A stretch of 64,000 nucleotides of DNA. It comes from Lytechinus pictus (Eukaryota). The stretch's first letter is position 1, and the number at the start of each line of letters is the position of its first letter. The position numbers and the translations under genes were made by a program. The DNA lies in the NCBI RefSeq assembly GCF_037042905.1, contig NC_087250.1, positions 20,152,001-20,216,000 on the forward strand, in the 5' to 3' direction. Under the pieces are notes generated by a model, which worked only from the letters and a program-made list of their open reading frames with translations, was not told the DNA's origin and made no database searches. Below, in pieces: positions 23,301-24,441 of this stretch.

Positions 23301-24441
23301 TATATGTGAAGGGCTATGCACAAATAATCAAAATCCACCAAGACATAAATACATCCATACAGGTGCAAAGCACCATGTGTGCAATCAATGTGGTAAGGTA
23401 TTTGTTTCTAAATCTCAGCTCACAATACATAAACGAATCCATACAGGTGAGACGCCCTATGTATGTGATCAATGTGGTAAGACATTTAATCAAGAACATC
23501 ATCTCACATACCATAAACGAATCCATACAGGTGAGAAGCCCTATGAATGTGATCAATGTGGTAAAGCATTTAATAAAAAAACTAATCTCACAAGACATAA
23601 ACGAATCCATACTGGTAAGAAGCCCTATGTATGTGATCAATGTGGTAAGGCATTTAATGTGGAAAATAATCTCACAATACATAAACGTATCCATACAGGT
23701 GAGAAGCCCTATATATGTGATCAATGTGGTAAGGCATTTAATCAAGAACAGAATCTCACAACACATAAACGTATCCATACAGGTGAGAAGCCCTATGTAT
23801 GTGAACAATGTGGTAAGGCATTTAATCTCATGGGTGATCTTACAAGACATAAACGAATCCATACAGGTGAGAAGCCCTATGTATGTGATCAATGTGGTAA
23901 GACATTTAATCAAGAACAGAATCTCACAGCACATAAACGTATCCATACAGGTGAGAAGCCCTATGTATGTGATCAATGTGGTAAGGCATTTAATCGTGAA
24001 CATCATCTCACATACCATAAACGTATCCATACAGGTGAGAAGCCCTATGTATGTGATAAGTGTGGTAAGACATTTAATCAAGAACAGAATCTCACAACAC
24101 ATAAACGTATCCATACAGGTGAGAAGCCTTATGTATGTGATCAGTGTGGTAAGGCATTTAATCGTGAATATAATCTCACAACACATAAACGAATCCATAC
24201 AGGTGAGACGCCCTATGTATGTGATCAATGTGGTAAGGCATTTAATGATGGAAGTACTTTCAGGAAACATAAACGAATCCATACAGGTGAGAAGCCCTAT
24301 GTATGTGATCAATGTGGTAAGGCATTTAATGATGGAAGTAATTTCAGAAAGCATAAATCAAAGTGTCAAGGTGCAAACACACAGTGCAATAAGAAACCTG
24401 TGCAGTCAGAAATAAGAAACATCAAAACCAATGAATTCTAA
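14203..24441 (+). CDS. PRDM9: PRDM9/Meisetz, full-length (KRAB-SSXRD-Zn knuckle-PR/SET-C2H2 array), about 955 aa; join(14203..14338,15388..15510,18033..18112,18657..18972,19537..19650,20827..21092,22247..22499,22862..24441)
   Basis: All introns are GT-AG with compatible phases, and the joined 2868 nt stay open to the TAA. The domain order is diagnostic for PRDM9. The donor at 18972 (alternative 18804) and the acceptor at 22862 (alternative 22871) are uncertain. Confidence 0.9.
15388..15510 (+). CDS. PRDM9: PRDM9 exon: KRAB C-terminus and acidic linker
   Basis: [34 protein letters not shown] matches the PRDM9 GL...P.FM...DEEW.P pattern; CAG acceptor, GTATGT donor. Confidence 0.88.
15700..17900. 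repeat. Intronic minisatellite with mixed 32-bp and 24-bp units
   Basis: CATGTGCTTTCTACTAAAGATATTAAGATACT and a shorter CATGTGCTTTCTACTAAAGATACT; interrupted at 16109..16886. Confidence 0.95.
16109..16886. mobile_element. Non-autonomous hAT-like element inserted in the minisatellite
   Basis: Perfect 19-bp TIR TAGGGACAGTGATTTTCCG, subterminal ACGGAA repeats, duplicated target CATGTG. Confidence 0.85.
18033..18112 (+). CDS. PRDM9: PRDM9 linker exon
   Basis: TAG acceptor, CCG|GTAAGT donor; [27 protein letters not shown]; phases 1/0 fit the neighbouring exons. Confidence 0.75.
18657..18972 (+). CDS. PRDM9: PRDM9 low-complexity linker exon
   Basis: Pyrimidine tract plus TAG acceptor, open frame [15 protein letters not shown]..., phase-1 donor GTAAGA. 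The 3' end is uncertain. Confidence 0.65.
19215..19361. mobile_element. MITE with CAGGGGCCGCGGAAC TIR
   Basis: CAGGGGCCGCGGAAC ... GTTCCGTGGCCCCTG, with TAAAG on both flanks. Confidence 0.75.
19537..19650 (+). CDS. PRDM9: PRDM9 exon: SSXRD motif
   Basis: [24 protein letters not shown] matches the Y..R.R....Y.E...P.DD.Y SSXRD pattern; donor GTAAGT. Confidence 0.88.
19864..20168. mobile_element. MITE (GGCCCGTATTCTGA family)
   Basis: Same TIR and body as 1417..1727. Confidence 0.8.
20827..21092 (+). CDS. PRDM9: PRDM9 exon: zinc knuckle and first half of PR/SET
   Basis: [16 protein letters not shown] knuckle; [11 protein letters not shown]...FGPYDG...SGYSWE. Confidence 0.95.
21288..21442. mobile_element. 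Harbinger-like MITE
   Basis: GGGCCCGTTTCATAA TIRs, CAG TSD. Confidence 0.85.
21938..22212 (+). mobile_element. tRNA-derived SINE (family B) in a PRDM9 intron
   Basis: TGGTCTAGTGG and GGTTCAAATCC boxes; the (ATT)n tail ends about 35 bp before the SET exon acceptor. Confidence 0.85.
22247..22499 (+). CDS. PRDM9: PRDM9 exon: second half of PR/SET
   Basis: YVDS...[55 protein letters not shown]. Confidence 0.95.
22862..24441 (+). CDS. PRDM9: PRDM9 last exon: post-SET zinc finger, spacer and 12-finger array
   Basis: YRCEYC...HLKWKH, then 11 C2H2 fingers with TGEKPY-type linkers and a terminal C2HC finger. Confidence 0.95.
23374..24366 (+). repeat. PRDM9: 84-bp coding minisatellite (zinc-finger array)
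   Basis: Twelve units, nearly identical at the DNA level outside the recognition helix. Confidence 0.95.

Follow-up and report, generated by a model that had tools for sequence, protein, structure and literature searches.

The 64,000-nucleotide stretch of the Lytechinus pictus genome analysed here (the window) carries twelve tandem zinc fingers whose units differ mainly at the residues that read DNA. From the letters of this array, the original prediction was that it undergoes the rapid, minisatellite-type turnover of a hotspot-directing PRDM9. This raises several questions. Does the array belong to a PRDM9 gene? Is its diversity concentrated at the contact residues to a degree that other zinc-finger arrays do not reach? 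Does the array differ between species? And would this particular copy direct recombination hotspots? The first of these can be answered with considerable assurance: the assignment to PRDM9 was right, and it stands on firmer ground than the extent of the array could show, as the array is one part of a full-length PRDM9 gene.

The gene and its annotation

An open model of eight exons with canonical splice ends spans 14203-24441 on the forward strand and encodes 952 aa, with no stop or frameshift in the 952 codons. The domain order is KRAB, SSXRD-like segment, zinc knuckle, PR/SET, single finger and array. Exon 1 (14203..14338, +) provides the start codon and an ancestral KRAB-A box (aa 1-45), which a profile of four vertebrate PRDM9/PRDM7-like KRAB boxes picked out of 2813 stop-to-stop pieces of the window with an E of 1.7e-14, the runner-up having an E of 1.3; used as a query, the exon finds Pfam-KRAB proteins and named PRDM9/PRDM7-like proteins. 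Exon 2 (15388..15510, +), which has AG/GT ends and an open frame, encodes a KRAB-B-like segment and an acidic SDSEDEEW motif; it can be aligned to goat, shark and caecilian PRDM9 and has the same sequence as the RefSeq model of this locus (P0002, see below). Exon 3 (18033..18112, +), a basic linker in open frame, is likewise identical to that model. Exon 4 (18657..18972, +) is an echinoid linker, for which five of the six donors tested leave an open frame; the donor at 18972 agrees with P0002, and the same position is the end of a related copy's spliced contig (X2 record 15). Exon 5 (19537..19650, +) encodes an SSXRD-like segment directly before the zinc knuckle, the top but weak match (E 0.021, next 1.8) of a profile of five vertebrate proteins among the 2813 pieces, with the position and pattern seen in goat PRDM9 P0194, which has a Pfam SSXRD. 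The profiles behind the KRAB and SSXRD assignments were built from vertebrate proteins; neither Pfam KRAB nor Pfam SSXRD matched the window exons or five longer proteins directly.

Exon 6 (20827..21092, +; Pfam PRDM2_PR) encodes the zinc knuckle and the first half of PR/SET, and exon 7 (22247..22499, +; Pfam PRDM2_PR and SET) the second half. PRDM9 chains stand first among the 9 and 14 PDB matches of these two exons, the best being 6NM4, 4IJD and 4C1Q for exon 6 (E 5e-15 to 1e-14) and reaching E 6e-22 for exon 7. Tyr327 (21036-21038, exon 6), Tyr392 (22385-22387, exon 7) and Tyr408 (22433-22435, exon 7) align to tyrosines of 6NM4/4IJD and match human Y276, Y341 and Y357, as numbered by one constant offset; these three catalytic tyrosines serve as a criterion of full-length PRDM9 in a recent survey (bioRxiv 10.64898/2026.09.07.749791). 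The first part of exon 8 (22871..23373, +) consists of a single post-SET C2H2 finger (22882-22965) and a spacer, its nearest relative being P0003 of L. variegatus (85% over exon residues 1-175). Then come the terminal array (23374..24381, +), an 84-bp coding minisatellite of 11 C2H2 fingers and one C2HC finger, and a C-terminal tail with the stop codon (24382..24441, +), similar to the tail on other Lytechinus copies. The array had been predicted at 23374..24366; this stretch is indeed array and ends on the last base of its terminal Cys codon, but the array itself ends at 24381 and the gene occupies 14203-24441. No second PRDM9 and no further C2H2 array was found within the 64-kb window. We regard the array as the part with which an intact, full-length L. 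pictus PRDM9 reads DNA, and as to membership in this family the sequence leaves very little doubt.

The public annotation does not contain this gene in full. The L. pictus RefSeq model of the locus (P0002, XP_063956537.1, named PRDM9-like, 347 aa) is exactly the first 345 aa of the present model, then runs into intron 6 and stops, without exon 7 and the array. The finding thereby corrects the annotation: as the public model is without half of SET and all of the array, proteome-based surveys would score this copy as truncated. Of 7 database matches of 287-914 aa, none represented exons 7-8 here, which is weak evidence. Contigs of two sequencing runs of unspecified tissue (X16 and X2, guessed to be RNA) join stretches of exons 4, 6, 7 and 8 without introns and so support these junctions; as they are only 92-96% alike to the window copy, they come from other copies or relatives. 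One related contig has ten differences, of which six, in exon 6, were listed; five of these six are synonymous. At the listed diagnostic positions the window copy's own letters were absent from all four runs compared (the array lies outside the compared stretch), and the search of sequencing runs listed no RNA run and none holding half of the query words.

Repeats occur in and around the gene. Decayed tandem copies of exon ends, 66-81% alike and with splice sites, lie beside exon 1 (13872-13976, 13994-14127), exon 5 (19681-19824) and exon 6 (20460-20576, 20594-20728); 'mirage' minisatellites are known from amphioxus (PMC3087553). Intron 2 holds a 24/32/56-bp satellite (15706-17869) interrupted by about 780 bp of inserted sequence with inverted ends (about 16109-16887), probably a non-autonomous DNA transposon. 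High-copy interspersed elements, recognised by read depth, occupy parts of introns 4, 5 and 6 (19080-19439, 19800-20339, 21240-21599, 21780-22319), the last of which stops at a run of TAT, leaving about 25 nt to the acceptor of exon 7. Elsewhere in the window are a 607-aa open frame on the reverse strand (2326-4149), LINE-like by eye with reverse transcriptase and a C-terminal part; degenerate satellites in which CAACGTTG is frequent and which have long open frames in several phases (24666-25885, 29079-30243); and a TTTCGTC-GACGAAA palindrome repeat family with 21-60-bp periods in three places (31378-32172, 56681-58230, 62281-63069).

Variation within the array and in control arrays

A single open frame reads through twelve 84-bp units from 23374 to 24381 (a tandem-repeat scan gave a period of 84 and 12.1 copies), and the Cys/His ligands are intact in all 11 C2H2 fingers. 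All twelve contact quartets at helix positions -1, 2, 3 and 6 read as previously listed, and the F at +4 of fingers 11 and 12 and the C2HC form of the final finger were seen as claimed. The backbones had been called nearly identical, which holds for the 60 backbone bases per unit (mean identity 94.7% in units 2-11) but not for whole units, whose DNA has a mean identity of 87.1%. No two of the 12 units are identical in DNA; the closest pair has 3 differences, and the longest exact in-register tract between units is 58 nt. In units 2-11 the four contact codons hold 54.5% of the pairwise base differences, a share matched by only 2 of 20,475 four-codon sets. The uncorrected pN/pS values are 0.544/0.276 for the contact codons and 0.035/0.117 for the backbone, with pN exceeding pS at the contact codons only; they are descriptive values, since conversion breaks the tree assumption (PMC5519329).

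Fingers 2 and 8 had looked like mosaics, and the sharing of blocks bears this out: finger 2 matches fingers 7 and 9 in its 5' variants and finger 8 in its helix block, and finger 8 in turn matches finger 10 in its 5' block. The four-gamete test was failed by 45 of 91 pairs of informative sites, a count that recurrent mutation at hypervariable codons can inflate. Simple stepwise duplication of units was rejected because the similarity of fingers does not drop with distance, 9.9-13 differences being found at every spacing along the array.

Is this concentration of diversity exceptional? In the 11 C2H2 units, positions -1, 2, 3 and 6 account for 0.508 of the amino-acid diversity; leaving out the first unit gives 0.56, and adding the C2HC finger gives 0.43. 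For comparison, 119 control arrays were taken from the best 120 of 6735 matches to the array query, P0009 being dropped as a PRDM9; these 120 are mostly vertebrate, with no Lytechinus protein among them. Three of the 119 carry a SET motif and were set apart. In the remaining 116 non-SET arrays, mostly vertebrate and picked by likeness to the query, the contact share has a median of 0.282 and a maximum of 0.441, so that none of the 116 reaches the 0.508 of the window, and one of the 116 has a backbone as uniform. A SET-less shark array has a contact share of 0.45. Against other zinc-finger genes of the same genome, for which the comparison covers two arrays of SET-less KRAB-finger genes, the share in the window lies above both (P0034, 0.26; P0058, 0.30). 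Over eight SET-bearing Lytechinus arrays the share is 0.51-0.72, with the window and P0005 lowest (0.51). Complete vertebrate PRDM9 arrays range over 0.33-1.0, salmon having 0.54 and 0.50 and pike 0.46 (PMC5519329), and cnidarian PRDM9 over 0.29-1.0 (bioRxiv 10.64898/2026.09.07.749791). As SET-less relatives have 0.26-0.33 and SET-bearing genes 0.51-0.72, a high contact share tracks the full-length form.

The SET-less relatives deserve a separate description. P0034, P0058 and P0032 of L. pictus and P0035 of L. variegatus have a PRDM9-type KRAB and linker, most of them with finger arrays, and thus present the KRAB-zinc-finger layout in an invertebrate. P0034, P0058 and P0035 are PRDM9-derived KRAB zinc-finger genes with heterogeneous fingers, no SET motif and the low share (0.26-0.33) given above; P0034 is related to the window gene in its KRAB exon (62%) and exon-4 linker (56%).

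Paralogs and array turnover in Lytechinus

L. pictus has two more full-length copies, P0005 and P0006, on a contig of 28,517,652 nt that is presumably also the contig of P0002; L. variegatus P0003, P0018, P0020 and P0007 lie on a 47.8-Mb contig. Outside the array the three L. pictus copies are 80-91% identical. Trees of the non-array part contain three lineages, each with members from both species: lineage A with the window copy, P0003 and P0004 (support 84-86/90-92, moderate and drawn open), lineage B with P0006 and P0018 (93-98/96), and lineage C with P0005, P0007 and P0020 (82-100/87-100, the low end arising when the only outgroup was a distant one). In AU tests whose hypotheses were chosen after inspection of a first tree, a tree placing all L. 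pictus copies together was rejected (p-AU 1.6e-53), as was one placing L. pictus A and B together (p-AU 6e-4). Since each copy groups with an L. variegatus gene and the L. pictus-only tree is rejected, the three PRDM9 lineages are, on these trees, older than the split between L. pictus and L. variegatus.

Every Lytechinus copy that has exon 7, the window copy included, retains the tyrosine motifs. The prediction implied many alleles, and on this point the analysis covered one other L. pictus array of lineage A, that of P0004. This NCBI nr protein is without exon 7 and has a 9-finger array with only the last helix in common with the window; it may be an allele or a fourth copy. Over 570 columns, 13 substitutions are private to the window copy, compared with 3-6 in four other copies and 19 in P0020; in the core region the window copy has 4 of 230, compared with 0-5. 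Its private changes in exon 7 are M367V and N375S. Several PRDM9-like models (P0009, P0023, P0028, P0013, P0008) are known from Strongylocentrotus purpuratus too; some of them may be haplotypes. The two or three of them included in the trees group apart from Lytechinus, and the S. purpuratus duplications therefore look independent.

Conservation of the array between species, which would speak against rapid turnover, is not what is found. Counterparts differ in length and content: L. pictus and L. variegatus finger counts are 12 vs 6, 7 vs 8, and 11 vs 7 and 9, with 1, 0 and 0 exact helices in common. The 12 vs 6 pair is that of the window and P0003, with the one common helix, and no L. variegatus array has more than one helix in common with the window. 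By overall similarity, the window helices are closer to the L. variegatus arrays (4.7-5.1 of 7) than to the conspecific ones (3.8-4.3). The predicted PRDM9-like turnover therefore holds between species, in length and in helices, but within the array there are no identical fingers and homogenisation is below that of mouse.

Across lineages, 3 of 51 distinct helices recur, whereas shuffles gave a mean of 0.22 and reached 3 in 4 of 5000; the shuffle takes no account of common ancestry, and one recurring case rests on the position of P0004 in lineage A. In one recurrence (P0004/P0006) the entire 28-aa finger is identical, including two backbone residues that are unusual. At the protein level these recurrences point to an exchange of fingers between loci, and retention of old fingers may be an alternative source. 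It is a tentative idea, though one worth entertaining, that PRDM9 of Lytechinus is a multi-locus system in which three old paralogs all direct hotspots and swap fingers between loci. If so, the cluster of paralogs would serve as a common pool of fingers, from which hotspot specificity could be renewed more quickly than by a single locus.

Possible roles and known systems

What, then, would the window copy do? The analysis as a whole leans towards a copy that directs hotspots. By inference from vertebrate PRDM9, the array would bind a GC-poor-to-mixed motif of roughly 30 bp in meiocytes, PR/SET would write H3K4me3 and H3K36me3 on nucleosomes nearby, and KRAB/SSXRD would couple the bound site to the break machinery. 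Breaks would form at the marked site and their repair would erode the motif, and this erosion would favour new arrays, produced as 84-bp units undergo unequal exchange and gene conversion; such a mechanism of hotspots and erosion is summarised in bioRxiv 10.64898/2026.09.07.749791.

It seems rather unlikely, but merits serious attention, that the window gene is instead a true PRDM9 paralog in retirement, little used or expressed mostly as a short KRAB-SSXRD-half-SET transcript, with an array that is a slowly homogenised relic while the other two copies direct hotspots. The end of the RefSeq model in intron 6 speaks for this reading, as does the high-copy element stopping so close to the exon 7 acceptor, and the lack of exon 7 in the lineage mate P0004 counts against the main reading; intron 6, for its part, is devoid of AATAAA/ATTAAA, and the annotation of the L. 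variegatus counterpart is full length. The lack of any identical finger pair and the better fit to L. variegatus arrays than to conspecific ones also favour a relic, and the mean identity of 87% weighs against the main reading; the intact Cys/His ligands of 11 fingers and the frame of 952 codons free of stops and frameshifts speak against a relic. The 13 private substitutions include M367V, beside the cofactor-binding N-C motif, but those in the core stay inside the range of the other copies. Full-length duplicates in cnidarians are described as short-lived (bioRxiv 10.64898/2026.09.07.749791), which also suits a retiring copy.

That the full-length copies are chromatin writers outside recombination, marking for example transposons or germline genes, with contact residues in an arms race with mobile elements, we consider improbable. 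The runs that yielded spliced contigs of related copies are of unspecified tissue, which would accommodate such a role, and the existence of SET-less proteins with PRDM9 KRAB, linker and fingers (P0034, P0058) shows that the gene family spawns transcription-factor-like genes. An arms race with mobile elements has been proposed for KRAB zinc-finger proteins. Yet it is these SET-less relatives that are without the signature (0.26 and 0.30, and 0.33 in L. variegatus P0035); the signature follows the full-length form, as in vertebrates (PMC5519329). A neutral coding minisatellite with mechanically homogenised units, or an assembly product whose three copies are uncollapsed haplotypes, has very little left in its favour beyond the evident mis-joins in sea-urchin models of this family (P0001, P0024, P0027), and is largely refuted by the non-synonymous excess at contact codons, by copies that differ at 9-20% of positions outside the array and each group with an L. 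variegatus gene, and by the rejection of the L. pictus-only tree. The hotspot-directing reading of the window copy bears on whether PRDM9 directs recombination outside vertebrates, and as L. pictus is a laboratory sea urchin, both the role of PRDM9 and the sharing of hotspots among copies are directly testable.

Birtle and Ponting, cited in PMC8835667, reportedly described sea-urchin Meisetz/PRDM9 with an ancestral KRAB in 2006, in work concerned with the origin of KRAB. It belongs to the same gene family as the window gene and has the same ancestral KRAB-A. Sea-urchin PRDM9 with ancestral KRAB is known (PMC8835667; PMC2794550), as is concerted evolution in invertebrate PRDM9 arrays (PMC2779102). 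On the copy number, arrays or inter-locus finger exchange of echinoid PRDM9, no study was found in the open literature (subscription journals lay outside the search), and the available part of PMC11212366 holds nothing on urchin PRDM9. Termites have full-length PRDM9 and hotspots, the link between them not being demonstrated (PMC12047536), and the accessible sections of that paper and of bioRxiv 10.64898/2026.09.07.749791 give no invertebrate PRDM9 demonstrated to direct hotspots.

Vertebrate full-length PRDM9 (human, mouse, salmonid PRDM9-alpha) has its four domains in the order found here, where the SSXRD-like segment is a weak match, with knuckle and post-SET finger, the same Y276/Y341/Y357 tyrosines and an array in one terminal exon, and the share of 0.51 in the window is within its range. 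It differs in that SET is divided among three exons in salmonids (PMC11703093) and between two in the window gene, and in that all finger pairs of mouse Prdm9 exceed 90% identity (PMC2779102), compared with the mean of 87.1% here. Vertebrates are said to keep one full-featured copy (bioRxiv 10.64898/2026.09.07.749791), whereas three copies with the signature are present here; several full-length copies also occur in salmonids (PMC11703093), and in cattle three complete copies hold ranks 1, 6 and 7 (PMC5519329). The closest parallel in copy number is cnidarian PRDM9, in which several full-length paralogs likewise keep their tyrosines and have fast-changing arrays, frequently on the same scaffold; this multi-copy pattern is, in the text available, called unseen in other explored taxa (Rudler et al., 2026; bioRxiv 10.64898/2026.09.07.749791). 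That survey lists PRDM9 genes for 97 metazoan species, perhaps with echinoderms among them. Cnidarian duplicates are mostly post-speciation, some being genus-level or older (Rudler et al., 2026), in contrast to the apparently pre-split lineages of Lytechinus, which is moreover a deuterostome with fingers recurring across paralogs. The signature itself is textbook PRDM9, and both sea-urchin and multi-copy PRDM9 are known; set against these systems, what the Lytechinus locus adds is the hidden full-length status of a gene annotated as short, three lineages that seem to predate the species split, and a lead on the exchange of fingers between them.
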